Source of the DNA: Escherichia coli
GTDB lineage: Bacteria > Pseudomonadota > Gammaproteobacteria > Enterobacterales > Enterobacteriaceae
Assembly (NCBI RefSeq): GCF_030013595.1
Contig: NZ_CP122768.1
Length of the DNA: 64,000 bases
Strand: one strand, 5' to 3'
The notes beneath the pieces are model-generated. The model was not told the origin of the DNA. It saw nothing but the letters and a program-made list of their open reading frames with translations, and did not search any database. A program made the position numbers and the translations under genes. This document shows, in pieces, positions 1 through 37,634 of this stretch. Every line of letters begins with the position of its first letter. The first letter of the stretch is position 1.

Positions 1-788
1 ACTTCGCCGAGCATGAACTGACTGCGCAATGCATAATGAAAGTAATATGGTCAATGGTTCTTTCCCATCTTAATGGAAAACGTCAATCACAAGAACGTAG
101 GGAACCGCTTGAGCTTTATAGAATTTACTTCTATGACTGTCCACCACTCGACATTCAAACACGCCTTCCACTTCCTGAGCCTGGCAATAAGACGCCTGGT
201 CGCAAGAATTTCAAACTCGAAAAATCATATATTCTGAGAACGGAGCTGCATGAAGAGTTAAGAAAAACTCGAAAAACAGCCTTAAGATTAGGGAATCTTG
301 TTGATAATAAGCGATGGCAACTAACTACATTCTCCCTTGATGCTCTGATGAAAGGAACGAAAAAATGGGATGAACTGACAAATGATGATTTTTACTATGA
401 CATCAAACAAAAACAAGTTGATATCAAGCTAGGGATGGATATCACGACTTTAGCTTATGAAAAACTTGTTGATGTAATTGTCCTTGTTGCTGGGGACTCA
501 GACTTTGTGCCTGCCGCCAAACACGCCAGAATTAAAGGTATTGATTTTATTCTTGATCCACTAAGACAGAATGTTACCCCATCACTGTCAGAGCACATTG
601 ATGGAGTTCAGTCATACAGCTTGATATCAGGACTTGCCGATGCTTTACATGTTGAGCCAGACCCGGCACCTGACTGGTGGGAAGATCGAAAAAAAGGCAA
701 GCCTAGAGGAAAAAACAATAGCGGTAAACGCAGGTATGGAAACACTCAAGCTGAGTCAGCAAAGAAACATCAAAGAAATAAACGATAA
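1..788 (+). CDS. NYN/LabA-like (PIN-type nuclease fold) domain protein with basic C-terminal tail; immunity-region accessory gene; possibly 5'-truncated by window edge (first ATG at 36, frame open to position 3)
   Basis: 250-aa ORF; motif VLVAGDSDFVPAAKHARIKGIDF typical of NYN/LabA domains; lies upstream of pL/nutL/N, same strand, followed by terminator. Confidence 0.55.
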   Translation, partial: FAEHELTAQCIMKVIWSMVLSHLNGKRQSQERREPLELYRIYFYDCPPLDIQTRLPLPEPGNKTPGRKNFKLEKSYILRTELHEELRKTRKTALRLGNLVDNKRWQLTTFSLDALMKGTKKWDELTNDDFYYDIKQKQVDIKLGMDITTLAYEKLVDVIVLVAGDSDFVPAAKHARIKGIDFILDPLRQNVTPSLSEHIDGVQSYSLISGLADALHVEPDPAPDWWEDRKKGKPRGKNNSGKRRYGNTQAESAKKHQRNKR

Positions 789-796
789 TCCCATCA

Positions 797-823
797 ACCC
801 GGCCACCGAGCCGGGTTTTCTTT
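797..823 (+). terminator. Rho-independent terminator after immunity-region ORF
   Basis: ACCCGG...CCGGGT 6-bp stem followed by TTTTCTTT. Confidence 0.5.
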
Positions 824-1008
824 GCCTCACGCCCCCACCTAAAGACACATAACCAAATGTATTTATTGAAAAATAAATAGATACAACTCACTAAACCACG
901 CAATTCTGATCTCTCCTTACATCGCCGAGGCGATACACCCACGCTAAAAAACAACACTATTAAATACAAAGCGTTATAAAAAATCACCCCATTTTAGAAC
1001 AAATTGTA

Positions 1009-1037
1009 TTGACCCAATAAAGTACATATCGTACTAT
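1009..1037 (+). promoter_or_regulatory. Candidate pL promoter (-35 TTGACC, 17-bp spacer, -10 TACTAT)
   Basis: Sigma70-like hexamers about 45 nt upstream of nutL boxA and about 190 nt upstream of N start. Confidence 0.35.
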
Positions 1038-1083
1038 TTAACCGTCAGCAGGACGCTGTAAGCCAAACGGAGCAGACTGGCAG

Positions 1084-1129
1084 GCTCTTTAAACAACGTC
1101 GAACACTCGACTACGTGGCTGAAAAGCCA
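1084..1129 (+). promoter_or_regulatory. nutL-like site: boxA (GCTCTTTAAACAA, 1084-1096) plus boxB-like hairpin (TGGCT-GAAA-AGCCA, 1116-1129)
   Basis: boxA nearly identical to the rrn/lambda boxA consensus; small GNRA-looped hairpin about 20 nt downstream, in the N leader. Confidence 0.45.
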
Positions 1130-1227
1130 GATCACCCAACCATATAAGCTGTGGGATGCAATGCCGAAGCAACCGTCTCAGGAGGAGCTTCGAGATTGCA
1201 TCGCCAAAGTTTATTCGGGAGGAATCT

Positions 1228-1500
1228 ATGTCCAGAAAAACAGAATTTAAAGGCACCGCAGCTTCTCGCCGTAGAGCTCGTCGTGCAAACCTGCAAAGTC
1301 AGGAGGCGATCAGCTCTGACAAGCTACACAGGCCAACCCCTTCACGAGTGGTCTTACAATGCAAACGCAAACCAGTAATGAGAGCAGAAGTAATAACACT
1401 GACAACGTTGACCAGAAAATATGAAGGCTCAACTTGTCTTCCAAATGTAGCCATTTACGCGGCAGGCTACAGGAAATCCAAACAGCTGACAGCAAGATGA
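1228..1500 (+). CDS. N: Antitermination protein N, non-lambda type (933W / P22 gp24-like)
   Basis: 90 aa; N-terminal arginine-rich motif (GTAASRRRARRANL); C-terminus ...CLPNVAIYAAGYRKSKQLTAR resembles recalled P22 gp24/933W N; GGAGG SD 5 nt upstream. Confidence 0.7.
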   Translation: MSRKTEFKGTAASRRRARRANLQSQEAISSDKLHRPTPSRVVLQCKRKPVMRAEVITLTTLTRKYEGSTCLPNVAIYAAGYRKSKQLTAR

Positions 1501-1558
1501 CTTGTGTTGGTCGCCAGAAAATGAAATTAGGCAGCAAACCACTTATTTGAGGTGAGAT

Positions 1559-1645
1559 ATGGAAGAAGAATTTGAAGAGTTCGAAGAGCATCCTCAGGAT
1601 GTGATGGAACAATACCAGGACTATCCGTATGACTACGACTATTGA
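1559..1645 (+). CDS. Small acidic ORF (28 aa, MEEEFEEFEEHPQDVMEQYQDYPYDYDY), lambda orf28-like
   Basis: ATG 1559 to TGA 1643-1645; position between N and ral. Confidence 0.35.
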   Translation: MEEEFEEFEEHPQDVMEQYQDYPYDYDY

Positions 1646-1829
1646 TACAAATCAATGGTGTGGACAATTCAAACGATGCAATGGATGCAAGCTGCAATCG
1701 GAATGCATGGTTAAGCCTGAAGAAATGTTTCCTGTAATGGAAGATGGGAAATATGTCGATAAATGGGCAATACGAACGACGGCAATGATTGCCAGAGAAC
1801 TTGGTAAACAGAACAACAAAGCTGCCTGA
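1629..1829 (+). CDS. ral: Ral (restriction alleviation)
   Basis: 66-aa ORF matching recalled lambda Ral length and position. Confidence 0.7.
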   Translation: MTTTIDTNQWCGQFKRCNGCKLQSECMVKPEEMFPVMEDGKYVDKWAIRTTAMIARELGKQNNKAA

Positions 1830-1965
1830 TAGTGGCCTTTATTTTTGGCATAAATAACAGAATAAACACTGCACTGTGTATTCATTCCAACGAGTGAATA
1901 CACGGAGCAATGTCGCTCGTAACTAAACAGGAGCCGACTTGTTCTGATTATTGGAAATCTTCTTT

Positions 1966-1992
1966 GCCCTCCAGTGTGAGGGCGATTTTTTA
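1966..1992 (+). terminator. Rho-independent terminator in pL operon
   Basis: GCCCTC-cagtgt-GAGGGC hairpin followed by T-run. Confidence 0.45.
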
Positions 1993-2011
1993 TCTATGAG
2001 GATATGAATAG

Positions 2012-2380
2012 ATGTCAAACATCAAAAAATACATCATTGATTACGACTGGAAAGCATCAATAGAAATTGAAATCGACCATGACTTAATGACAGAGGAAAA
2101 ACTTCACAAGATTAATAATTTCTGGTCAGACTCTGAATACCGACTCAATAAACACGGCTCTGTATTAAATGCTGTATTAATCATGCTGGCGCAACATGCT
2201 CTGCTTATAGCAATTTCAAGCGACTTAAATGCATATGGTGTTGTGTGTGAGTTCGACTGGAATGATGGAAATGGTCAGGAAGGATGGCCTACAATGGATG
2301 GTAGCGAAGGAATAAGAATTACCGATATCGATACATCAGGAATATTTGATTCAGATGATATGACTATCAAAGCCGCCTGA
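2012..2380 (+). CDS. ea10: Ea10-like early protein
   Basis: 122-aa ORF in lambda ea10 position and size. Confidence 0.65.
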   Translation: MSNIKKYIIDYDWKASIEIEIDHDLMTEEKLHKINNFWSDSEYRLNKHGSVLNAVLIMLAQHALLIAISSDLNAYGVVCEFDWNDGNGQEGWPTMDGSEGIRITDIDTSGIFDSDDMTIKAA

Positions 2381-2452
2381 GCGCGGCGTTACCGCATACC
2401 AATAACGCTTCACTCGAGGCGTTTTTCGTTATGTATAAATAAGGAGCACACC

Positions 2453-2617
2453 ATGCAATATGCCATTGCAGGGTGGCCTGTTGCTGGCTGCCCTTCCGAA
2501 TCTTTACTTGAACGAATCACCCGTAAATTACGTGACGGATGGAAACGCCTTATCGACATACTTAATCAGCCAGGAGTCCCAAAAAATGGATCAAACACTT
2601 ATGGCTATCCAGACTAA
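2453..2617 (+). CDS. cIII: CIII (FtsH/HflB inhibitor)
   Basis: 54 aa [54 protein letters not shown]; matches recalled lambda CIII. Confidence 0.85.
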   Translation: MQYAIAGWPVAGCPSESLLERITRKLRDGWKRLIDILNQPGVPKNGSNTYGYPD

Positions 2618-2729
2618 ATTCACTATCGCCACTTTTATTGGCGATGAAAAGATGTTTCGTGAAGCCGTCGACGCTTATAAAAAATGGATATTAATGCTGA
2701 AACTGAGATCAAGCAAAAGCATTCACTAA
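2586..2729 (+). CDS. kil: Kil (host-killing, FtsZ inhibitor)
   Basis: 47 aa, overlaps cIII 3' end as in lambda. Confidence 0.75.
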
Positions 2730-2804
2730 CCCCCTTTCCTGTTTTCCTAATCAGCCTGGCATTTCGCGGGCGCTATTTTCACAGCCATTTTCAGGAGTTC
2801 AGCC

Positions 2805-3101
2805 ATGAACGCTTATTACATTCAGGATCGTCTTGAGGCTCAGAGCTGGGCGCGTCACTACCAGCAGATCGCCCGTGAAGAGAAAGAGGCAGAACTGGCA
2901 GACGACATGGAAAAAGGCCTGCCCCAGCACCTGTTTGAATCGCTATGCATCGATCATTTGCAACGCCACGGGGCCAGCAAAAAAGCCATTACCCGTGCGT
3001 TTGATGACGATGTTGAGTTTCAGGAGCGCATGGCAGAACACATCCGGTACATGGTTGAAACCATTGCTCACCACCAAGTTGATATTGATTCAGAGGTATA
3101 A
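2805..3101 (+). CDS. gam: Gam (RecBCD inhibitor), short form
   Basis: 98 aa [21 protein letters not shown]...; AGGAG SD 7 nt upstream. Confidence 0.9.
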
Positions 3102-3106
3102 AACGG

Positions 3107-3892
3107 ATGAGTACAGCACTCGCAACGCTGGCAGGGAAGCTGGCTGAACGTGTCGGCATGGATTCTGTCGACCCACAGGAACTGATCACCACTCTTCGCC
3201 AGACGGCATTTAAAGGTGATGCCAGCGATGCGCAGTTCATCGCATTGTTGATCGTCGCCAACCAGTACGGCCTTAATCCGTGGACGAAAGAAATTTACGC
3301 CTTCCCTGATAAGCAGAACGGCATCGTTCCGGTGGTGGGCGTTGATGGCTGGTCCCGCATCATCAATGAAAACCAGCAGTTTGATGGCATGGACTTTGAG
3401 CAGGACAATGAATCCTGTACATGCCGGATTTACCGCAAGGACCGTAATCATCCGATCTGCGTTACCGAATGGATGGATGAATGCCGCCGCGAACCATTCA
3501 AAACTCGCGAAGGCAGAGAAATCACGGGGCCGTGGCAGTCGCATCCCAAACGGATGTTACGGCATAAAGCCATGATTCAGTGTGCCCGTCTGGCCTTCGG
3601 ATTTGCTGGTATCTATGACAAGGATGAAGCCGAGCGCATTGTCGAAAATACTGCATACACTGCAGAACGCCAGCCGGAACGCGACATCACTCCGGTTAAC
3701 GATGAAACCATGCAGGAGATTAACACTCTGCTGATCGCCCTGGATAAAACATGGGATGACGACTTATTGCCGCTCTGTTCCCAGATATTTCGCCGCGACA
3801 TTCGCGCATCGTCAGAACTGACACAGGCCGAAGCAGTGAAAGCTCTTGGATTCCTGAAACAGAAAGCCTCTGAACAGAAGGTGGCTGCATGA
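3107..3892 (+). CDS. bet: Bet (Red-beta single-strand annealing protein)
   Basis: 261 aa, matches recalled lambda Bet. Confidence 0.95.
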
Positions 3893-4569
3893 CACCGGAC
3901 ATTATCCTGCAGCGTACCGGGATCGACGTGAGAGCTGTCGAACAGGGGGATGATGCGTGGCACAAATTACGGCTCGGCGTCATCACCGCTTCAGAAGTTC
4001 ACAATGTGATAGCAAAACCCCGCTCCGGAAAGAAATGGCCTGACATGAAAATGTCCTACTTCCACACCCTGCTTGCCGAGGTTTGCACCGGTGTGGCTCC
4101 GGAAGTTAACGCTAAGGCGCTGGCCTGGGGAAAACAGTACGAGAACGACGCCAGAGCCCTCTTTGAGTTCACTTCCGGCGTGAATGTTACTGAATCCCCG
4201 ATCATCTATCGCGACGAAAGTATGCGCACCGCCTGCTCTCCCGATGGTTTATGCAGTGACGGCAACGGCCTTGAACTGAAATGCCCGTTTACCTCCCGGG
4301 ATTTCATGAAATTCCGGCTCGGTGGTTTCGAGGCCATAAAGTCGGCTTACATGGCCCAGGTGCAGTACAGCATGTGGGTGACGCGAAAAGATGCCTGGTA
4401 CTTTGCCAACTATGACCCACGAATGAAGCGTGAAGGCCTGCATTATGTCGTGGTTGAGCGGGATGAAAATTACATGGCGAGTTTTGACGAGATGGTGCCG
4501 GAGTTCATCGAAAAAATGGACGAGGCACTGGCTGAAATTGGTTTTGTATTTGGGGAGCAATGGCGATGA
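3889..4569 (+). CDS. exo: Exo (lambda exonuclease, Red-alpha)
   Basis: 226 aa, matches recalled lambda Exo; overlaps bet stop. Confidence 0.95.
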
Positions 4570-4748
4570 AGCATCCTCACGATAATATCCGGGTAGGTGC
4601 GATCACTTTCGTCTACTCCGTTACAAAGCGAGGCTGGGTATTTCCCGGCCTTTCTGTTACCCGAAATCCCCTGAAAGCACAGCGGCTGGCTGAGGAGATA
4701 AATAATAAACGGGGAGCTGTATGCACAAAGCATCTCCTGTTGAGTTAA
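4566..4748 (+). CDS. exo-xis region small protein, orf60a-like
   Basis: 60 aa from second in-frame Met; position immediately after exo. Confidence 0.45.
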
Positions 4749-4912
4749 GAACGAGCATTGAGATGGCACATAGCCTCGCTCAAATTGGAGTCAGGTTTGT
4801 GCCAATACCAGTAGAAACAGACGAAGAATTTCATACGTTAGCCGCATCCCTTTCACAAAAGCTGGAAATGATGGTGGCGAAAGCAGAAGCAGATGAGAGA
4901 GACCAGGTATGA
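4721..4912 (+). CDS. exo-xis region small protein, orf63-like
   Basis: 63-aa ORF. Confidence 0.5.
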   Translation: MHKASPVELRTSIEMAHSLAQIGVRFVPIPVETDEEFHTLAASLSQKLEMMVAKAEADERDQV

Positions 4913-4988
4913 CAACCACTGAATGCATTTTTCTGGCAGCGGGCTTCATATTCTGTGTGCTTATGCTTGCCGACATGGGACTTGTTCA

Positions 4989-5204
4989 ATGACACATCAG
5001 CAAGAAAACGCCCTTCGCAGTATTGCCCGTCAGGCTAATTCTGAAATCAAAAAAGCCAGACAGCAGTTTCCGGATAAAAACGTCGATGACATTTGCCGTA
5101 GCGTACTGAAGAAGCACCGCGAAACGGTAACGCTGATGGGATTCACACCGACTCATTTAAGCCTGGCGATCGGCATGTTAAACGGCGTCTTTAAGGAACG
5201 GTGA
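4989..5204 (+). CDS. exo-xis region small protein, orf61-like (start uncertain; frame open from 4923)
   Basis: ORF in expected position; start codon choice unresolved. Confidence 0.35.
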   Translation: MTHQQENALRSIARQANSEIKKARQQFPDKNVDDICRSVLKKHRETVTLMGFTPTHLSLAIGMLNGVFKER

Positions 5205-5302
5205 GCATGAAAAACAAAATCATCATGGAGCTACAGGCTCCTTTTTTATTATTCGCATTCACCCTCAAGCGTATTAACCAACAATTCAGGGATTAATGAA
5301 AG

Positions 5303-5524
5303 ATGGCAGACATCATTGATTCAGCATCAGAAATTGAAGAATTACAGCGCAACACAGCAATAAAAATGCGCCGCCTGAACCACCAGGCTATATCTGCCAC
5401 TCATTGTTGTGAGTGTGGCGATCCGATAGATGAACGAAGACGCTTGGCCGTTCAGGGTTGTCGGACTTGTGCAAGTTGCCAGGAGGATCTGGAACTTATC
5501 AGTAAACAGAGAGGTTCGAAGTGA
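5303..5524 (+). CDS. exo-xis region C4 zinc-finger protein (DksA/TraR-like), orf73-like
   Basis: 73 aa with CxxC...CxxC (CCECGDPIDERRRLAVQGCRTCASC). Confidence 0.6.
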   Translation: MADIIDSASEIEELQRNTAIKMRRLNHQAISATHCCECGDPIDERRRLAVQGCRTCASCQEDLELISKQRGSK

Positions 5525-6069
5525 GCGAAATTAACTCTCAGGCACTGCGTGAAGCGGCAGAGCAGGCAATGCATGACGACTGGGGATTTGACGCAGACCT
5601 TTTCCATGAATTGGTAACACCATCGATTGTGCTGGAACTGCTGGATGAACGGGAAAGAAACCAGCAATACATCAAACGCCGCGACCAGGAGAACGAGGAT
5701 ATTGCGCTAACAGTAGGGAAACTGCGTGTTGAGCTTGAAACAGCAAAATCAAAACTCAACGAGCAGCGTGAGTATTACGAAGGTGTTATCTCGGATGGGA
5801 GTAAGCGTATTGCTAAACTGGAAAGCAACGAAGTCCGTGAAGACGGAAACCAGTTTCTTGTTGTTCGCCATCCTGGGAAGACTCCTGTTATCAAGCACTG
5901 CACTGGTGACCTGGAAGAGTTTCTGCGGCAGTTAATCGAACAAGACCCGTTAGTAACTATCGACATCATTACGCATCGCTATTACGGGGTTGGAGGTCAA
6001 TGGGTTCAGGATGCAGGTGAGTATCTGCATATGATGTCTGACGCTGGCATTCGCATCAAAGGAGAGTGA
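5521..6069 (+). CDS. ea22: Ea22
   Basis: 182-aa ORF in lambda ea22 position and size. Confidence 0.75.
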   Translation: MSEINSQALREAAEQAMHDDWGFDADLFHELVTPSIVLELLDERERNQQYIKRRDQENEDIALTVGKLRVELETAKSKLNEQREYYEGVISDGSKRIAKLESNEVREDGNQFLVVRHPGKTPVIKHCTGDLEEFLRQLIEQDPLVTIDIITHRYYGVGGQWVQDAGEYLHMMSDAGIRIKGE

Positions 6070-6260
6070 GATCGGTTTTGTAAAAGATAACGCTTGTGAA
6101 AATGCTGAATTTCGCGTCGTCTTCACAGCGATGCCAGAGTCTGTAGTGTCAGATGATGACCGTACTCAAACATCGGGTTGAGTATTATCTTACTGTTTCT
6201 TTACATAAACATTGCTGATACCGTTTAGCTGAAACGACATACATTGCAAGGAGTTTATAA

Positions 6261-6542
6261 ATGAGTATCAATGAGTTAGAGTCTGAGCAAAAAGATTGGG
6301 CGTTATCAATGTTGTGCAGATCCGGTGTCTTGTCTCCATGCAGACATCACGAAGGTGTTTATGTAGATGAAGGTATAGATATAGAGTCGGCATACAAATA
6401 TTCCATGAAGGTTTATAAGTCTAATGAAGACAAATCCCCATTCTGCAATGTGCGAGAAATGACTGATACCGTGCAAAATTATTATCACGAGTACGGTGGA
6501 AACGATACTTGCCCTCTCTGTACAAAACATATAGATGATTAA
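6261..6542 (+). CDS. ea8.5: Ea8.5
   Basis: 93-aa Cys/His-rich ORF in lambda ea8.5 position and size. Confidence 0.75.
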   Translation: MSINELESEQKDWALSMLCRSGVLSPCRHHEGVYVDEGIDIESAYKYSMKVYKSNEDKSPFCNVREMTDTVQNYYHEYGGNDTCPLCTKHIDD

Positions 6543-6630
6543 ACCCAATATTACATAACAATCCTCGCACTCGCGGGGATTTATTTTATCTGAACTCGCT
6601 ACGGCGGGTTTTGTTTTATGGAGATGATAA

Positions 6631-6798
6631 ATGCACTTCCGAGTCACAGGAGAATGGAATGGAGAGCCATTCAACAGAGTTATCGAAGCGGAGAACATCA
6701 ACGACTGCTACGACCACTGGATGATATGGGCGCAGATAGCACATGCAGACATAACCAATATTCGAATTGAAGAACTGAAAGAACACCAAGCCGCCTGA
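6631..6798 (+). CDS. Small ORF (55 aa) between ea8.5 and xis
   Basis: ATG 6631 to TGA 6796-6798, followed by hairpin plus T-run; below the 60-aa cutoff of the ORF track. Confidence 0.4.
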   Translation: MHFRVTGEWNGEPFNRVIEAENINDCYDHWMIWAQIAHADITNIRIEELKEHQAA

Positions 6799-6813
6799 TG
6801 GCGGTTTTTTCTT
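6789..6813 (+). terminator. Rho-independent terminator upstream of xis
   Basis: CCGCC-tgat-GGCGG hairpin followed by TTTTTTCTT. Confidence 0.4.
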
Positions 6814-6837
6814 GCGTGTAATTGCGGAGACTTTGCG

Positions 6838-7056
6838 ATGTACTTGACACTTCAGGAGTGGAACGCTCGCCAGCGACGCCCAAGAAGCCTTGAAACAGTT
6901 CGTCGATGGGTGCGCGAATGCAGGATATTCCCTCCTCCGGTTAAGGATGGAAGAGAATATCTGTTCCACGAATCAGCGGTAAAGGTTGACTTAAATCGAC
7001 CAGTAACAGGTAGCCTTTTGAAGAGGATCAGAAATGGGAAGAAGGCGAAGTCATGA
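6838..7056 (+). CDS. xis: Excisionase Xis
   Basis: 72 aa MYLTLQEWNARQRRPRSLETVRRWVRECRIF...; matches recalled lambda Xis. Confidence 0.95.
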   Translation: MYLTLQEWNARQRRPRSLETVRRWVRECRIFPPPVKDGREYLFHESAVKVDLNRPVTGSLLKRIRNGKKAKS

Positions 7057-8104
7057 GCGCCGGGATTTACCCCCTAACCTTTATATAAGAAACAATGGAT
7101 ATTACTGCTACAGGGACCCAAGGACGGGTAAAGAGTTTGGATTAGGCAGAGACAGGCGAATCGCAATCACTGAAGCCATACAGGCCAACATTGAGTTATT
7201 TTCAGGACACAAACACAAGCCTCTGACAGCGAGAATCAACAGTGATAATTCCGTTACGTTACATTCATGGCTTGATCGCTACGAAAAAATCCTGGCCAGC
7301 AGAGGAATCAAGCAGAAGACACTCATAAATTACATGAGCAAAATTAAAGCAATAAGGAGGGGTCTGCCTGATGCTCCACTTGAAGACATCACCACAAAAG
7401 AAATTGCGGCAATGCTCAATGGATACATAGACGAGGGCAAGGCGGCGTCAGCCAAGTTAATCAGATCAACACTGAGCGATGCATTCCGAGAGGCAATAGC
7501 TGAAGGCCATATAACAACAAACCCTGTCGCTGCCACTCGCGCAGCAAAATCAGAGGTAAGGAGATCAAGACTTACGGCTGACGAATACCTGAAAATTTAT
7601 CAAGCAGCAGAATCATCACCATGTTGGCTCAGACTTGCAATGGAACTGGCTGTTGTTACCGGGCAACGAGTTGGTGATTTATGCGAAATGAAGTGGTCTG
7701 ATATCGTAGATGGATATCTTTATGTCGAGCAAAGCAAAACAGGCGTAAAAATTGCCATCCCAACAACATTGCATGTTGATGCTCTCGGGATATCAATGAA
7801 GGAAACACTTGATAAATGCAAAGAGATTCTTGGCGGAGAAACCATAATTGCATCTACTCGTCGTGAACCGCTTTCATCCGGCACAGTATCAAGGTATTTT
7901 ATGCGCGCACGAAAAGCATCAGGTCTTTCCTTCGAAGGGGATCCGCCTACCTTTCACGAGTTGCGCAGTTTGTCTGCAAGACTCTATGAGAAGCAGATAA
8001 GCGATAAGTTTGCTCAACATCTTCTCGGGCATAAGTCGGACACCATGGCATCACAGTATCGTGATGACAGAGGCAGGGAGTGGGACAAAATTGAAATCAA
8101 ATAA
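7034..8104 (+). CDS. int: Integrase Int (tyrosine recombinase)
   Basis: 356 aa MGRRRSHERRDLPPNLYIRNNGYYCYRDPRTGKEF...; matches recalled lambda Int; overlaps xis. Confidence 0.97.
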   Translation: MGRRRSHERRDLPPNLYIRNNGYYCYRDPRTGKEFGLGRDRRIAITEAIQANIELFSGHKHKPLTARINSDNSVTLHSWLDRYEKILASRGIKQKTLINYMSKIKAIRRGLPDAPLEDITTKEIAAMLNGYIDEGKAASAKLIRSTLSDAFREAIAEGHITTNPVAATRAAKSEVRRSRLTADEYLKIYQAAESSPCWLRLAMELAVVTGQRVGDLCEMKWSDIVDGYLYVEQSKTGVKIAIPTTLHVDALGISMKETLDKCKEILGGETIIASTRREPLSSGTVSRYFMRARKASGLSFEGDPPTFHELRSLSARLYEKQISDKFAQHLLGHKSDTMASQYRDDRGREWDKIEIK

Positions 8105-8200
8105 TGATTTTATTTTGACTGATAGTGACCTGTTCGTTGCAACAAATTGATAAGCAATGCTTTTTTATAATGCCAACTTAGTATAAAAAAGCAGGCTTCA
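8105..8200 (-). other. attL: attL (P' arm plus 15-bp core GCTTTTTTATACTAA at 8178-8192, read on minus strand, plus B arm)
   Basis: Core TTAGTATAAAAAAGC on + strand; lambda P' arm sequence immediately 3' of int; bacterial B-arm bases continue into ybhC leader. Confidence 0.9.
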
Positions 8201-34878: not shown

Positions 34879-35190
34879 AGATAGTCGAATGGTGGGGAAA
34901 AGTCACTCGAATTACGTATGAGATGCCGAATGCCACACTTTGCGTCTTATTTCTCCGACGTAAAGTTGTTTACGCAGCAAACGCGGAGTATGTCATCTGG
35001 GTTAAGAATTGAAATTGAGAGATGCCTGAATAGCAAAAAAGCGCCTTTAGGGCGCTTTTTTACATTGGTGGGTCGTGCAGGATGACTCGCTTCGCTCGCC
35101 CTTCGGGCCGTCGCCGCGAGCGGCTCCGTTGTTTCGCTGCGCTCAACTCAAACCTGCTGCAGGTTCGAATCTTTGAGTATCGCAGATAGC

Positions 35191-35218
35191 AAAAAAGCGC
35201 CTTTAGGGCGCTTTTTTA
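35191..35218 (-). terminator. Rho-independent terminator after tRNA cluster (second copy at 35033-35061)
   Basis: AAAAAAGCGCC-ttta-GGGCGCTTTTTT symmetric hairpin. Confidence 0.6.
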
Positions 35219-35221
35219 CAT

Positions 35222-35297
35222 TGGTGGGTCGTGCAGGATTCGAACCTGCGACCAATTGATTAAAAGTCAACTGCTCTACCAACTGAGCTAACGACCC
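35222..35297 (-). tRNA. lysQ: tRNA-Lys (UUU)
   Basis: Reverse complement matches tRNA-Lys including CCA end; position in cluster. Confidence 0.9.
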
Positions 35298-35330
35298 CTT
35301 GCGGGATTATGCTGCTTTAATCATTCAGGA

Positions 35331-35406
35331 TGGTGGGTCGTGCAGGATTCGAACCTGCGACCAATTGATTAAAAGTCAACTGCTCTACCAACTGAGCTAA
35401 CGACCC
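35331..35406 (-). tRNA. lysZ: tRNA-Lys (UUU)
   Basis: Identical tRNA-Lys copy. Confidence 0.9.
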
Positions 35407-35552
35407 ATACGGGTGTTACCTGAAAGATTTCTACTCGGAACCAATCTTTAAAATTGGTGGGTCGTGCAGGATGACTCGCTTCGCTCGCCCTTCGGGCCGT
35501 TGCTGGCGCAACGTTATCCTTCACGCTTAACATCTGAGTTTGATGTTAAAAT

Positions 35553-35628
35553 TGGTGGGTCGTGCAGGATTCGAACCTGCGACCAATTGATTAAAAGTCA
35601 ACTGCTCTACCAACTGAGCTAACGACCC
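35553..35628 (-). tRNA. lysY: tRNA-Lys (UUU)
   Basis: Identical tRNA-Lys copy. Confidence 0.9.
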
Positions 35629-35631
35629 GAG

Positions 35632-35707
35632 TGGTGGGTGATGACGGGATCGAACCGCCGCCCCCCTCCTTGTAAGGGAGGTGCTCTCCCAGCTGAGCTA
35701 ATCACCC
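35632..35707 (-). tRNA. valZ: tRNA-Val (UAC)
   Basis: Reverse complement matches tRNA-Val(UAC), one base variant from the other copy. Confidence 0.9.
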
Positions 35708-35758
35708 GATACTGCGCTGGATACTACAAACTACTTCCACCGAACCCACCGTAATTAG

Positions 35759-35834
35759 TGGTGGGTCGTGCAGGATTCGAACCTGCGACCAATTGATTAA
35801 AAGTCAACTGCTCTACCAACTGAGCTAACGACCC
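35759..35834 (-). tRNA. lysW: tRNA-Lys (UUU)
   Basis: Identical tRNA-Lys copy. Confidence 0.9.
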
Positions 35835-35836
35835 GG

Positions 35837-35912
35837 TGGTGGGTGATGACGGGATCGAACCGCCGACCCCCTCCTTGTAAGGGAGGTGCTCTCCCAGCTG
35901 AGCTAATCACCC
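35837..35912 (-). tRNA. valT: tRNA-Val (UAC)
   Basis: Reverse complement matches tRNA-Val(UAC). Confidence 0.9.
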
Positions 35913-36047
35913 AATACTACGCTGGATACTACAACTAACTATGTTAGTGGTGGGTCGTGCAGGATGACTCGACTTCGTCTCGCCCTTCGGGCCGTTGCTG
36001 ACGCAACGTTATCCTTCACGTTTTACTACCGCTTCCACCTTAGCGAT

Positions 36048-36123
36048 TGGTGGGTCGTGCAGGATTCGAACCTGCGACCAATTGATTAAAAGTCAACTGC
36101 TCTACCAACTGAGCTAACGACCC
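36048..36123 (-). tRNA. lysT: tRNA-Lys (UUU)
   Basis: Identical tRNA-Lys copy, first gene of cluster. Confidence 0.9.
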
Positions 36124-36287: not shown

Positions 36288-37079
36288 TTACATCGCGTTC
36301 AGACGTTTTTGCGCCTGTTTAGCGCCATCAGTACCAGGGTATTTACTGATAACCTGCTGGTATACGGCTTTCGCTTTTGCGGTGTCACCTTTGTCCTGCA
36401 TGATGACGCCGACTTTAAACATCGCATCTGCAGCCTTTGGCGACTTCGGATAGTTTTTTACTACCGAAGCAAAATAGTACGCCGCATCATCTTTTTTACC
36501 CTTGTTGTAGTTTAACTGACCCAGCCAATAATTGGCGTTTGGCAGGTAAGTTGAATCAGGGTAATTTTTGATGAAATTCTGAAATGCCACCATTGCGTCA
36601 TCCTGGCGGGATTTATCCTGCACCAGCGCAATAGCTGCATTGTAATCCGTGTTTGCATCACCGCTTTTCACCGGCGCGCCAGCATTCGCAGTACCAGCAT
36701 CAGCTGTCGGCGTCATTGATGCCGCCGCACCGCTTTGATCGCCGCTGGTTGATTGCGCCGCTGCACCACCGCTGCTGAGGCTATCGATCTGCAACAGGAT
36801 CTGCTTTTGCCGCTCCACGACCTGATTCAGTTGATACTGATTTTCCTGAATCTGACCACGCAGGGAATCAATATCGGATTGATTATCAGAGAGTTGTTGC
36901 TGGAGTTGGGTTAAAAGCTGGCTGTGAGCATTTGAAATACGCTCAAGTTGAGTGACGCGGTCTTCGACCGAGCCTGAGCCGACACTACTGATTGGTGCCT
37001 GAGCAAAAGCGGCCCAGGGGGCCGCTATACCAACCAGTAACGACAGACTCAATAGTTGATGTCTGAAGTTACTGCTCAT
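36288..37079 (-). CDS. cpoB: CpoB (YbgF), TPR-containing cell-division coordinator
   Basis: 263 aa, signal peptide, coiled coil plus TPR. Confidence 0.9.
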   Translation of the reverse strand: MSSNFRHQLLSLSLLVGIAAPWAAFAQAPISSVGSGSVEDRVTQLERISNAHSQLLTQLQQQLSDNQSDIDSLRGQIQENQYQLNQVVERQKQILLQIDSLSSGGAAAQSTSGDQSGAAASMTPTADAGTANAGAPVKSGDANTDYNAAIALVQDKSRQDDAMVAFQNFIKNYPDSTYLPNANYWLGQLNYNKGKKDDAAYYFASVVKNYPKSPKAADAMFKVGVIMQDKGDTAKAKAVYQQVISKYPGTDGAKQAQKRLNAM

Positions 37080-37088
37080 GCAATTCTC

Positions 37089-37634
<546 letters not shown>

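Follow-up and report, generated by a model that had tools for sequence, protein, structure and literature searches.

RexA and RexB of phage lambda are the textbook prophage exclusion system, expressed in the lysogen against superinfecting phages such as T4 rII, and their genes are dispensable for lambda development. They follow the repressor gene in the cI-rex operon, which is ended by the terminator tImm. Modules of the ToxIN, CptIN, and TenpIN type, found on plasmids and phages, carry a single protein gene in the order promoter, structured non-coding RNA, intrinsic terminator, and endoribonuclease ORF; in ToxIN, a terminator that separates RNA and toxin determines the excess of RNA. The PIN-domain VapC toxins are PIN-like metal-dependent RNases on mobile DNA, and VapC20 and VapC26 cut the sarcin-ricin loop of 23S rRNA. 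Among NYN proteins, a bacterial CRISPR-associated member has a processing role and trims crRNA, and HEC-09 is a stand-alone bacterial NYN/MARF1-like protein for which RNase-based defence was proposed from genomic context (Payne et al., bioRxiv 10.1101/2024.01.29.577857). Here we describe an NYN gene cassette that takes the place of rexA-rexB in a lambda-type immunity region of Escherichia coli and compare it with these systems.

The window, i.e., the whole stretch of DNA that was analysed, comprises 64,000 nt of contig NZ_CP122768.1 (E. coli assembly GCF_030013595.1) and opens inside an NYN-domain nuclease ORF (1..788, + strand). The position of this gene was compared with phage lambda by alignment. 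In the imm-lambda prophage of E. coli AJ5, cI is 98% identical to lambda cI and the lambda oL, pL, nutL, and N are kept; the sole replaced segment begins right behind the cI stop codon and ends at the tImm hairpin, and it contains the NYN cassette instead of rexA-rexB. The DNA between these two points is unrelated to lambda, and the hairpin that follows the NYN stop codon is exactly where homology to lambda returns. The NYN gene holds the rexAB slot to base-pair precision, with the same location between cI and tImm, the same strand as cI, and the same end hairpin as RexA-RexB. The placement in a rexAB-equivalent slot, proposed by the initial annotation, was borne out by this natural swap. Like lambda rexAB, the cassette is non-essential prophage cargo. 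The protein itself had no homology to RexA or RexB, and its sole family matches were NYN and PHROG 5783 (E = 1e-119 for the latter).

Directly behind the ORF, an intrinsic terminator was found at 796..823 (+ strand), consisting of an 8-bp G+C-rich hairpin (796-817) and a U-run (−14.5 kcal/mol, z = −2.15). It had been described as the gene's own terminator. The hairpin is indeed present, but it aligns with lambda right after the rexB stop codon and is the homologue of tImm; it belongs to the phage backbone, and its assignment to the NYN gene was rejected. The lambda-homologous junction segment extends from tImm to just before oL (796..915, + strand) and delimits the swapped cassette on its right side. 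Downstream on the same strand, the window diverges from lambda oL/pL and carries a pL-like sigma-70 promoter of a non-lambda immunity type (1009..1037, TTGACC-17-TACTAT). It is followed at 1084..1111 (+ strand) by what we take, from knowledge of lambdoid nut sites, to be a nutL-like site, with a boxA-like GCTCTTTAA (1084-1092) and a boxB-like hairpin GTCGA-ACAC-TCGAC (1098-1111). A 90-aa N-like antiterminator ORF (1228..1500, + strand) has the arginine-rich motif GTAASRRRARRANLQ and a P22/HK97-like C-terminus, and its homologue in the related locus L001 is annotated by PGAP. These features agree with the earlier description of the ORF as lying just upstream of pL, nutL, and N on the same strand.

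Read in frame 3 of the + strand, the ORF runs without interruption from base 3 up to its stop codon at 786-788 and comprises 261 codons (3-785), which correspond to codons 25-285 of the gene. The ORF crosses the left edge of the window, so that the window holds the 3′ 92% of the gene and the 5′ 24 codons, including the catalytic D9, lie upstream. In near-identical loci (98% over window positions 1-1250), the ORF starts 70 nt upstream of the window with MKKAAILIDAGFF... and encodes 285 aa, as the initial annotation had suspected in placing the 5′ end outside the window; in lambda-type relatives, the repressor gene cI precedes the cassette. Loci L001 and L002 encode a 285-aa protein whose residues 25-285 matched the window protein at 100% identity, with 2 synonymous differences at the nucleotide level. 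The D9, start codon, promoter, and leader of the window copy lie outside the window and are described from the sequence of these relatives. The GC content of the ORF was 41%, compared with 46% in the prophage early region and 50% in the chromosome. At its 3′ end, the ORF encodes a low-complexity basic tail (681..785, + strand; residues 251-285) with a net charge of +11 over 35 residues and a pLDDT of about 50 in the predicted model. The highly basic tail noted at the outset therefore exists in the window copy, but it is not conserved in the family: across 66 homologues, 41 were strongly basic and 17 acidic in this region, and the length also varied. The basic tail is a lineage-specific trait and no defining feature of the family, and it was rejected as a functional hallmark.

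The core NYN catalytic segment lies at 402..545 (+ strand; residues 158-205) and includes QKQVD with D164 (420-422), D170, and GDSD with D189 (495-497) and D191 (501-503). The motif VLVAGDSDF...KGIDF, on which the NYN/LabA-type assignment had first been made, was found here, with D189 and D191 within 495-503. The protein matched PF01936 (Pfam NYN) with E = 1.1e-8 and 36 bits, a match that spans just model positions 72-119 of 145, and the same domain was precomputed on nearly all of the 120 listed homologues. In the AF2 model (pLDDT 88.9), fold comparison revealed a Rossmann-like NYN fold across the whole domain. D9, D69, D164, D170, D189, D191, and D224 were invariant in 66/66 homologues of 41-86% identity, and the whole 250-aa core was conserved in full-length homologues. 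The Asp after strand 1, the Asp of the xxVD strand, and the Asp of GDSD are represented by D9, D164, and D189/D191, whose order and spacing along the sequence agree with published NYN triads. D164 and D189 are 25 positions apart, just as D118 and D143 are in the characterised NYN RNase of Bacteroides fragilis. Together, the matches to the HMM and to the fold and the set of invariant Asp residues establish an NYN (LabA/MARF1-type, PIN-like) nuclease fold with intact catalytic residues, and the gene product is predicted to act as a metal-dependent nuclease. The TIGR00288 NYN equivalog gave 29.6 bits, under its curated cut-off of 178.45, and PDB sequence searches with the single protein and with a 66-sequence profile gave no relevant match, so that fold comparison alone linked the protein to known structures.

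Characterised NYN domains with the same Asp triad and spacing are Mn-dependent single-strand RNases. By analogy, the enzyme is probably a Mn2+/Mg2+-dependent single-strand RNase, and RNA would be its substrate. Compared with the NYN domains of MARF1 (5yaa/6fdl), VPA0982 (2qip), and the CRISPR-associated protein of B. fragilis, the present family has about 100 extra residues, which form a helical pair and beta-hairpins between strand 1 and the QKxVD strand and hold the family-specific invariant residues H46, R64, Y68, D69, K115, R119, and W129. It also has a C-terminal H222/D224 and PxWW extension that these proteins lack, and at the profile level it had zero sequence matches to PDB chains. The family is without RRM, LOTUS, or OST-HTH partner domains and, unlike the B. 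fragilis protein, is not CRISPR-linked except for one metagenomic neighbour. Compared with VapC, a likewise PIN-like metal-dependent RNase (predicted here) on mobile DNA, it falls into the NYN subgroup and is without a protein antitoxin gene.

In relatives, a sigma-70-like promoter of its own and a conserved, covarying hairpin with a terminal U-run lie ahead of nearly every copy of the gene, in the order promoter, leader hairpin, Shine-Dalgarno sequence, and ORF; the whole cassette is found, for example, in phage 2B8 (NC_049952, 35,400-36,460). This conserved promoter and leader are the most informative feature of the locus and lay outside the view of the initial annotation; comparison with relatives places the leader some 75-150 nt before the first base of the window. 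Transcription is predicted to begin about 4 nt ahead of the hairpin (L001 position about 7857). The promoter often overlaps a TTGAC-N6-GTCAA palindrome. The leader is a three-tier hairpin of 55-60 nt shaped like an intrinsic terminator, and in nearly all loci outside Rhodanobacteraceae a G+C-rich hairpin with U5-9, a putative terminator, ends 5-55 nt before the ATG. In alignment A6, 14 of 17 leader pairs showed compensatory changes; 95% of cells were paired, compared with 80% in shuffles (0/500 reached the observed value) and 28-45% in slid controls, and the covariation score was 0.55 compared with 0.26 in shuffles (again 0/500) and 0.06-0.17 in slid controls. A second leader variant (alignment A8) showed compensatory changes in 8/8 outer pairs. 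These alignments comprised only 17-20 related sequences, and in the type B leader the outer stem alone was scored, since the inner helix could not be aligned by MAFFT. The 142-nt spacer between cI and the NYN gene had an ordinary single-sequence folding energy (z = −1.33), and therefore the evidence for the leader comes from covariation and linkage rather than from energy. Internal loops and an apical loop of 12 nt kept the leader from being recognised in a simple scan for terminators. Pairing of the apical loop with the ORF start was dropped as a chance pairing of A+T-rich palindromes that is absent from other clades.

The linkage of leader and gene was strict. Covariance model R1 gave exactly one strong match per locus in 72 loci, just upstream of the ORF and on the same strand, and nothing comparable elsewhere in 1.08 Mb. 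As R1 misses distant leaders, a second model, R2, was needed for the second variant and gave 33 gene-proximal matches. Over about 2 Mb searched, every strong R1 or R2 match lay directly 5′ of an NYN ORF and in its orientation, with a single match at each locus. Exact matches to the core in IMG/VR were followed 23-28 nt later by an NYN start codon in 36 of 37 cases. The leader type co-varies with the protein clade, and in Sakai Sp1 the leader is intact while the gene is truncated. Rfam 15 contained no family for the leader at the gathering score or at E up to 10. The leader is a conserved structured RNA that had not been catalogued. The commonest variant has the internal loop CAGUA(C/A)G / GCCGA(A/G/U)C, which we take to resemble the AGUA/GAA sarcin-ricin motif; the E. 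coli-type leader is without the AGUA/GAA loop.

Homologues of the protein numbered 7035, and the family spans at least 589 species and 473 viral contigs, where it is annotated merely as “NYN domain-containing protein.” In E. coli, the gene occurred in 274 of 5426 genomes and was intact in 73; 54 phage records also held the full gene. About 200 of the 274 carrier genomes had truncated or IS-disrupted copies, most of them cut at about nt 350, and the gene is therefore dispensable in E. coli. It adjoins cI in 48 records of Stx2a-converting phages. In about 30 of 80 viral-contig relatives, it lies directly downstream of a repressor gene, with at least three different repressor types, and in at least 10 other viral contigs it occupies the Q-holin moron slot on the opposite strand. 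Further copies adjoin higBA on a conjugative plasmid, adjoin toxin-antitoxin genes on Rep3 plasmids, abut int at prophage ends, occupy a fixed glmS-adjacent chromosomal site in Proteus (140 index blocks), and in one metagenomic case lie directly upstream of type I-F cas genes. One distant homologue has an ordinary metabolic neighbourhood, and about 30 Rhodanobacteraceae species keep the gene in a conserved syntenic chromosomal neighbourhood without the terminator-type leader; outside this group, the neighbourhoods are non-syntenic and overwhelmingly belong to mobile elements. No protein partner gene was found in any of the prophage, plasmid, or chromosomal contexts examined. The gene travels by itself as cargo in prophage moron slots and on plasmids and islands. 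Since longest-ORF neighbour analysis was unreliable in high-G+C genomes, where the NYN ORF itself was dropped from some loci, no statistic of defence-island enrichment is claimed. The literature search found no paper on this protein, its locus tags, or an RNA motif upstream of NYN genes.

As the cassette sits exactly between the cI stop codon and tImm, it is placed for transcription in the lysogen, which would be driven by its own promoter and by read-through from pRM/pRE. At the leader hairpin, most transcripts would stop, leaving an excess of short leader RNA and a trickle of nuclease mRNA, and the nuclease would thereby be kept low and/or bound by its own leader RNA. An incoming phage or other element may upset this balance, upon which the enzyme would cut RNA and block the invader; the outcome would be exclusion or abortive infection, with the cassette as a functional stand-in for RexAB. 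The locus would then be an active nuclease cassette under RNA-leader control, and a role as an RNA-targeting defence or superinfection-exclusion factor is plausible. We give this explanation as a whole, a leader-controlled nuclease cassette that replaces rexAB and acts against invaders, an even chance of being correct. Against it stand the terminator-like leader between cI and the ORF, which argues against simple rex-like co-expression from pRM, the leaderless chromosomal synteny in Rhodanobacteraceae, which looks like a housekeeping role there, and the frequent disruption of the dispensable gene in E. coli. A search of PADLOC-DB v2 returned no significant full-length defence match, the local hits being HEC-09 (E = 2e-4, 46 residues) and the NYN model PDLC01154 (E = 1.4e-3, 43 residues). 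The similarity to HEC-09 is weak and confined to the GDSD region, and the two proteins belong to different families: HEC-09 carries an HTH-like domain at its N-terminus, lies within Hma systems, and has no reported leader RNA, whereas the present gene lies in prophage and plasmid moron slots behind a leader. HEC-09, the lone NYN defence candidate tested by others, gave no protection against any phage (bioRxiv 10.1101/2024.01.29.577857).

The same cassette may also be read as a type III-like toxin-antitoxin system, with the NYN RNase as the toxin, the abundant short leader RNA ended at its own U-run as a cis-encoded RNA antitoxin or decoy, and element stabilisation as the main benefit, defence being a by-product. 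The cassette leads from promoter through structured RNA and terminator to nuclease ORF and follows the same logic as ToxIN, CptIN, and TenpIN; the predicted hairpin and U-run would provide an intrinsic terminator between the RNA and the putative endoribonuclease ORF. The one-to-one linkage of leader and gene, the co-variation of leader type with protein clade, the frequent toxin-antitoxin genes next to plasmid copies, and the absence of a protein partner gene from every context point in the same direction. However, known type III antitoxins are defined by tandem repeats, and here the leader is a single hairpin; TRF found no repeats in L001 7700-8900, and ToxI-like repeats were rejected. The fold is NYN and not ToxN/AbiQ, Rhodanobacteraceae copies keep the gene without a terminator-type leader, and in E. 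coli the gene is easily lost or truncated, even with the leader left intact as in Sakai Sp1. We therefore regard the toxin-antitoxin reading as possible but doubtful. A tentative joint reading, which we also think improbable on balance, would make the NYN gene and its cis leader a new class of RNA-controlled toxin or Abi system, a PIN-like toxin with a single-hairpin antitoxin or decoy, spread over many phyla on prophages and plasmids and interchangeable with RexAB in lambda-type phages. The sarcin-ricin-like loop of the commonest leader would mimic the cellular target, e.g., 23S rRNA, and loss of the short-lived leader RNA upon shut-off of transcription by a phage would free a ribosome-inactivating RNase.

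A leader-autoregulated housekeeping enzyme of RNA processing or turnover, like LabA/NYN proteins or the crRNA-trimming CRISPR NYN, passively carried by mobile elements, would fit the syntenic, apparently vertical inheritance in Rhodanobacteraceae, the fixed chromosomal site in Proteus, the distant homologue in a metabolic neighbourhood, and the processing role of a bacterial NYN; many RNases also autoregulate via their own 5′ UTR. It is nevertheless unlikely in view of the overwhelmingly mobile, non-syntenic contexts elsewhere, the presence of the gene in two canonical lysogenic-conversion slots of lambdoid phages, and its patchy distribution in E. coli. A phage-serving RNase that tunes the prophage's own lysis-lysogeny transcripts (e.g., cII, N, or late mRNAs), for stability of lysogeny or timing of induction, would suit a gene inside the immunity region adjoining cI, and RNA cleavage does regulate lambda int, N, and cII expression (RNase III, sib, OOP). 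Yet the cassette is found beside at least three unrelated types of repressor, alongside either lambda or non-lambda N, in the opposite-strand Q-holin slot, and on plasmids and chromosomes, and thus cannot depend on the transcripts of one phage; it also substitutes for rexAB, which lambda does not need for its development. We consider this reading very unlikely. Slightly less probable still is the same cassette with a structure-specific DNase (FEN- or 5′-exonuclease-like) attacking incoming or replicating phage or plasmid DNA rather than RNA. The split RefSeq annotation, in which PGAP lists a “PIN pseudogene, missing C-terminus” and a 146-aa NYN protein, together with the truncation of most E. 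coli copies, suggests a decaying gene fragment, a case for which the initial annotation had allowed. Both PGAP pieces, however, lie in one uninterrupted 285-codon frame that is intact in near-identical loci, the window copy differs by synonymous changes alone, and the complete gene recurs in many genomes and phages with its whole core conserved. A pseudogene is thus scarcely credible and was rejected; the split is an annotation artefact, probably caused by the use of the truncated O157 Sp1 protein as reference.

The natural, base-precise replacement of rexAB by a single nuclease gene amounts to an isogenic test of alternatives for the same job, and it points to a large family that has so far carried only a domain label. 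The leader, absent from Rfam and seen only before NYN genes, offers a handle on how a potentially toxic RNase is silenced. If it turns out to act as an RNA antitoxin or decoy, RNA-based toxin control would extend past the ToxN and AbiF-type families to PIN-like nucleases; the eukaryotic PIN-like NYN nucleases KHNYN, N4BP1, and Regnase-1 are antiviral. If the enzyme is merely an autoregulated housekeeping RNase, the result would be a modest improvement of annotation. If the gene does exclude other phages, this would matter for how Shiga-toxin phages spread, since Stx2a-converting phage records carry it next to cI. As judged from its sequence, the NYN gene with its leader is a good candidate for an RNA-controlled anti-phage or toxin module.

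Frame 3 of the plus strand holds an ORF that is already open at base 3 of the window and closes with a TAA at 786-788; on the left it continues past the window edge. With window 1-1250 as the megablast query, loci of 98% identity were found among complete E. coli genomes. In two of them, those of E. coli O157:H7 493/89 (L001) and AJ5 (L002), this frame begins at an ATG 70 nt further upstream (MKKAAILIDAGFF...) and encodes 285 residues (RefSeq coordinates L001 7931-8788 and L002 5931-6788). The window encodes residues 25-285 of this protein at 100% identity, with two nucleotide differences, both synonymous. The initial annotation had reported this ORF and suggested that its 5' end may lie beyond the window, and both points were borne out. 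In both relatives, RefSeq/PGAP annotates the ORF as two features, a "PIN-domain pseudogene, missing C-terminus" and a "NYN domain-containing protein" of 146 aa (WP_224471529.1). The two pieces share one uninterrupted 285-codon frame, and the pseudogene reading was therefore discarded for intact copies. The split is an annotation artefact, which probably arose because the truncated copy in the Sp1 prophage (protein ECs_0273 of O157 Sakai), of which the database has many examples, acted as the reference. The G+C content of the ORF was 41%, compared to 46% in the phage early region and 50% in the chromosome.

The gene had been assigned to the prophage slot that holds rexA-rexB in lambda, and this assignment was proved by alignment and by the relatives. 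From 796 on the window aligns with lambda, and the first aligned base is the one after the rexB stop codon. The strong hairpin with a U-run downstream of the ORF stop (796-823, hairpin 796-817) is therefore the counterpart of tImm, the terminator closing the lambda cI-rexA-rexB operon, and not the gene's own terminator as previously described. In the AJ5 prophage, the repressor is 98% identical to lambda cI, and oL, pL, nutL, and N are those of lambda. Only one segment is exchanged. It begins a few bases past the cI stop, ends at the tImm hairpin, and contains a NYN cassette of about 990 bp (promoter, leader, and ORF) instead of the roughly 1400 bp that rexA-rexB occupy. The repressor upstream of the gene in O157:H7 493/89 differs in its DNA-binding domain. 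Moreover, about 30 of 80 IMG/VR loci have a repressor gene immediately before the NYN gene, in the same orientation and separated from it by 127-323 nt; at least three sequence types are represented among these repressors, and the N genes that come after them are of the lambda type or of other types. The AJ5 exchange and the repressor-adjacent loci thus show the slot claim, which is no longer merely plausible. The NYN gene is the counterpart of RexAB by position but is not a Rex homologue. In two viral contigs (L024 and L049, about 5500-5840), a 113-aa ORF lies between the repressor and the cassette, so the slot can carry more than one cargo gene.

The spacer between tImm and oL (window 796-915) is lambda-like, with about 120 nt of homology, while the operators, pL, nutL, and N at 916-1500 belong to another immunity type. 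This part contains a sigma-70-like promoter (1009-1037), a boxA-like GCTCTTTAA (1084-1092) and a boxB-like hairpin (1098-1111), both read from the sequence, and an N-like ORF of 90 aa with an arginine-rich motif (1228-1500), whose C-terminus resembles that of P22/HK97 N. Past N (about 1500-8192) the window is 98% identical to the lambda pL operon through int, and relative to lambda the boundaries of the immunity module are the terminator and the end of N. Past int the window is E. coli chromosome. The Rfam search located the lambda cIII thermoregulator at 2440-2498 and, near 35-37 kb, a lysT-valT-type tRNA cluster with RtT repeats (35066-36123) and the cpoB/ybgF thermometer (37050-37188). These features indicate that the window spans the immunity region, int (about 8192), and the chromosome near the lambda attachment region. 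The O157 prophage of L001 also has the sRNA genes AgvB (anti-GcvB) and STnc100 near its late region (201-453, Rfam gathering score).

The HMM search against PF01936 (NYN) gave a significant match (E 1.1e-8), confined to residues 158-205, and the TIGR00288 score was far under its cut-off. In PHROGs the protein matched phrog_5783 ("unknown function", E 1e-119), and no PDB chain was matched by sequence with either the single protein or a 66-sequence profile as query. The AlphaFold2 model from the 66-sequence alignment was confident (pLDDT 88.9, pTM 0.81). Across the 66 homologues (41-86% identity) the invariant residues include D9, D164 (QKxVD), D170, D189, and D191 (GDSD), as well as the family-specific H46, R64, Y68, D69, K115, R119, W129, H222, and D224. 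The order and spacing of D9/D164/D189 agree with the essential triads of other NYN RNases, namely D358/D426/D452 of MARF1, D14/D92/D115 of VPA0982, and D13/D118/D143 of a B. fragilis ssRNase that depends on Mn2+ and has no sequence specificity (bioRxiv 10.1101/2024.04.08.588522). Compared with these domains of about 150 residues, the prophage family is about 100 residues longer: two helices and beta-hairpins follow strand 1, and the C-terminus is extended as far as a PxWW motif. It is an extended NYN subfamily with no characterised member, and the enzyme is intact and under purifying selection. The highly basic C-terminal tail described in the initial annotation is present in the window copy (net +11) but does not hold for the family, since among the 66 homologues the tail is strongly basic in 41 and acidic in 17; this tail was poorly modelled and is not conserved.

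The 180 nt before the start codon were surveyed in all loci. Nearly all of them showed the same order of a sigma-70-like promoter (TTGACx-17-TAnnnT), a long hairpin with internal loops beginning about 4-25 nt after the promoter, and a U-run of 5-9 residues whose end is 5-55 nt short of the ATG. In L001 the promoter, a 53-nt three-tier hairpin, and the U-run occupy 7822-7925, which corresponds to about -179 to -76 relative to the window and lies outside it; the element immediately precedes all NYN ORFs of this clade, for example at L002 5852-5925, L007 6920-6993, and L003 7916-7988. Of 137 unique upstream regions, 39 have a palindrome, TTGAC-N6-GTCAA, that overlaps the promoter, where the expectation is about 0.02 per region. 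In the form TTGAC-N6(-9)-GTCAA it covers the -35 box and spacer at L001 7821-7838 (GTTGACGGCACAGTCAAC), with equivalents in L041, L081, L083, L007, and L053, and it could be an operator for a DNA-binding factor, perhaps an autoregulatory one. No tandem repeats were found in L001 7700-8900, and no leader peptide ORF was seen on reading the sequence.

The enterobacterial and Pseudomonas form of the leader (type A) reads AGCCCAG-CC-CCGUU-C-GCAGA-CAAUUGUUAAUA-UCUGC-AU-AACGG-CU-CUGGGCU-AUUUUUUU at L001 7861-7921. RNAalifold predicted 17 pairs from 17 distinct sequences, 14 of them with compensatory double changes, and the apical-loop bases AAU..UUA were invariant. The proportion of paired cells was 95.2%, compared to 80.3% in column shuffles (0 of 500 reached it) and 28-45% with slid partners, and the covariation score was 0.55, compared to 0.26 and 0.06-0.17, respectively. 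With the covariance model of this form (R1), 72 of 95 sources searched gave a strong match (48-85 bits), and never more than one per locus. All 72 lay just upstream of the NYN ORF on its strand, and the next-best match in the 1.08 Mb searched scored 24 bits. The window itself gave no R1 match, because the leader would sit about 75-150 nt before base 1. Furthermore, an exact 34-nt core pattern occurred 37 times in 2.9 million viral contigs, 36 times with a NYN start codon 23-28 nt downstream. The lone exact copy of the E. coli-type hairpin with no NYN gene after it (L221 3560-3700, IMG/VR 3300011920_000033) lacks the usual promoter and has a tRNA-like gene (anticodon loop CUUCUAA, Arg-UCU) immediately after it, an arrangement suggestive of either recombination at this hairpin or its recruitment as an ordinary terminator.

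Most other phyla carry a second form (type B; e.g., L154 4893-4961 and L167 1220-1289). Its outer stem of 8 bp has compensatory changes in 8 of 8 pairs, its internal loop 5'-CAGUA(C/A)G / 3'-GCCGA(A/G/U)C is conserved, and its inner hairpin is variable. The type B model (R2) matched 33 loci at 31 bits or more, solely 5' of the NYN gene. The leaders of Proteus, Marinomonas, Marinobacterium, and Agitococcus were matched by both models, and the two types therefore look like one RNA family. Rfam 15 held no family for either type, at the gathering score or at E up to 10. The leader is thus gene-specific, covarying, shaped like an intrinsic terminator, and placed between promoter and ORF, and it is very probably a functional RNA.

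The exact NYN gene was present in 274 of 5426 complete E. coli genomes, but just 73 of these have it intact. In about 200 genomes, most of them O157:H7, all that is left is the first 350 nt or so, in the decayed prophage Sp1 and with an intact leader (e.g., L020 3501-3890, O157:H7 Sakai), and one APEC strain (E12049, L021 3001-5194) has an IS3 element within the gene. These remnants and the insertion indicate that the gene is readily lost. Among phage records, 56 contain the gene, and 48 of these are from Stx2a-converting phages. The wider family comprised 7035 clusters at 90% identity, within the reach of the word search, and 332 clusters at 50% identity (E up to 1e-30). Relatives were encoded by 473 IMG/VR contigs and by at least 589 of 100,044 species genomes, from Gamma-, Beta-, and Alphaproteobacteria, Polyangium, Acidobacteria, Verrucomicrobia, Elusimicrobia, and Bacteroidales; AFDB added Firmicutes, Actinobacteria, and Spirochaetes. 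The gene occupies the moron slot between Q and holin, on the opposite strand, in Edwardsiella-type prophages, and a prophage end abutting the integrase in Halomonas and P. syringae. In Pantoea it is chromosomal, a few kb from prophage tail genes with toxin-antitoxin genes further upstream. It lies beside higBA on a conjugative element in P. aeruginosa, beside an HTH/M78-peptidase pair and toxin-antitoxin genes on Rep3 plasmids of A. baumannii, and downstream of glmS in Proteus. One metagenomic contig shows an ordinary metabolic neighbourhood. In another (L102 6001-11792), the gene immediately precedes, in the same orientation, a type I-F CRISPR-Cas operon (csy1-4, cas1); this member is a distant relative (P0127, 237 aa) with a type B leader. 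The gene was always single, and no conserved partner was found in any context examined. The cassette is a mobile single-gene unit with its own promoter.

Transcription that starts at the cassette promoter, or that reads through from pRM/pRE, would mostly stop at the leader, so that the leader RNA (about 65 nt) would be in excess and nuclease mRNA scarce. We take the enzyme to be an RNase because, to our knowledge, the characterised NYN domains are RNases in every case; a DNase variant of the same idea is a rival. The leader may limit expression by attenuation, may bind or occupy the enzyme as a decoy or antitoxin, or may be its autoregulatory cleavage target, in the manner of Regnase-1, which cuts stem-loops of its own mRNA. 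The type B internal loop resembles the AGUA/GAA sarcin-ricin motif, and PIN toxins that cut the sarcin-ricin loop of rRNA are a precedent; both offer a lead. Disturbance by an invader would then free the nuclease activity, which would block the invader. The cassette could also be an addiction module with no defence role, and it is similar in layout to type III toxin-antitoxin/Abi systems, but it lacks two features that define them, a tandem-repeat RNA and a ToxN-fold toxin. The carriers are too varied to make regulation of the phage's own transcripts likely.

Another rival, an autoregulated housekeeping RNase, is favoured by the Rhodanobacteraceae. About 30 Rhodanobacter, Dyella, and Frateuria species have the gene in a common syntenic chromosomal neighbourhood (L133-L162, L165, L168, and L171, including Fulvimonas), which points to vertical inheritance there. 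Their upstream regions carry a short G+C-rich hairpin, its loop often CCAUCC or CUAUGGG, and the U-run terminator form is absent. These copies look like a domesticated or ancestral housekeeping form. The sole NYN protein earlier proposed as stand-alone defence, HEC-09, is a distant relative at best, and it gave no protection in tests (bioRxiv 10.1101/2024.01.29.577857).

We are highly confident of the identity and architecture of the NYN cassette. A role against phages or other mobile elements is a serious possibility with about as much against it as for it, and the specific reading of the leader as an RNA antitoxin is improbable; the defence or exclusion function put forward in the initial annotation is a reasonable hypothesis. 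As a sequence the gene already has a generic annotation and so is not new. What is new is the combination of a precise rexAB replacement, the repeated occurrence in moron slots and on plasmids of different phyla, and a leader RNA that is absent from the catalogues and strictly tied to the gene. We rate the NYN cassette as a nuclease borne by mobile genetic elements and placed under RNA control.
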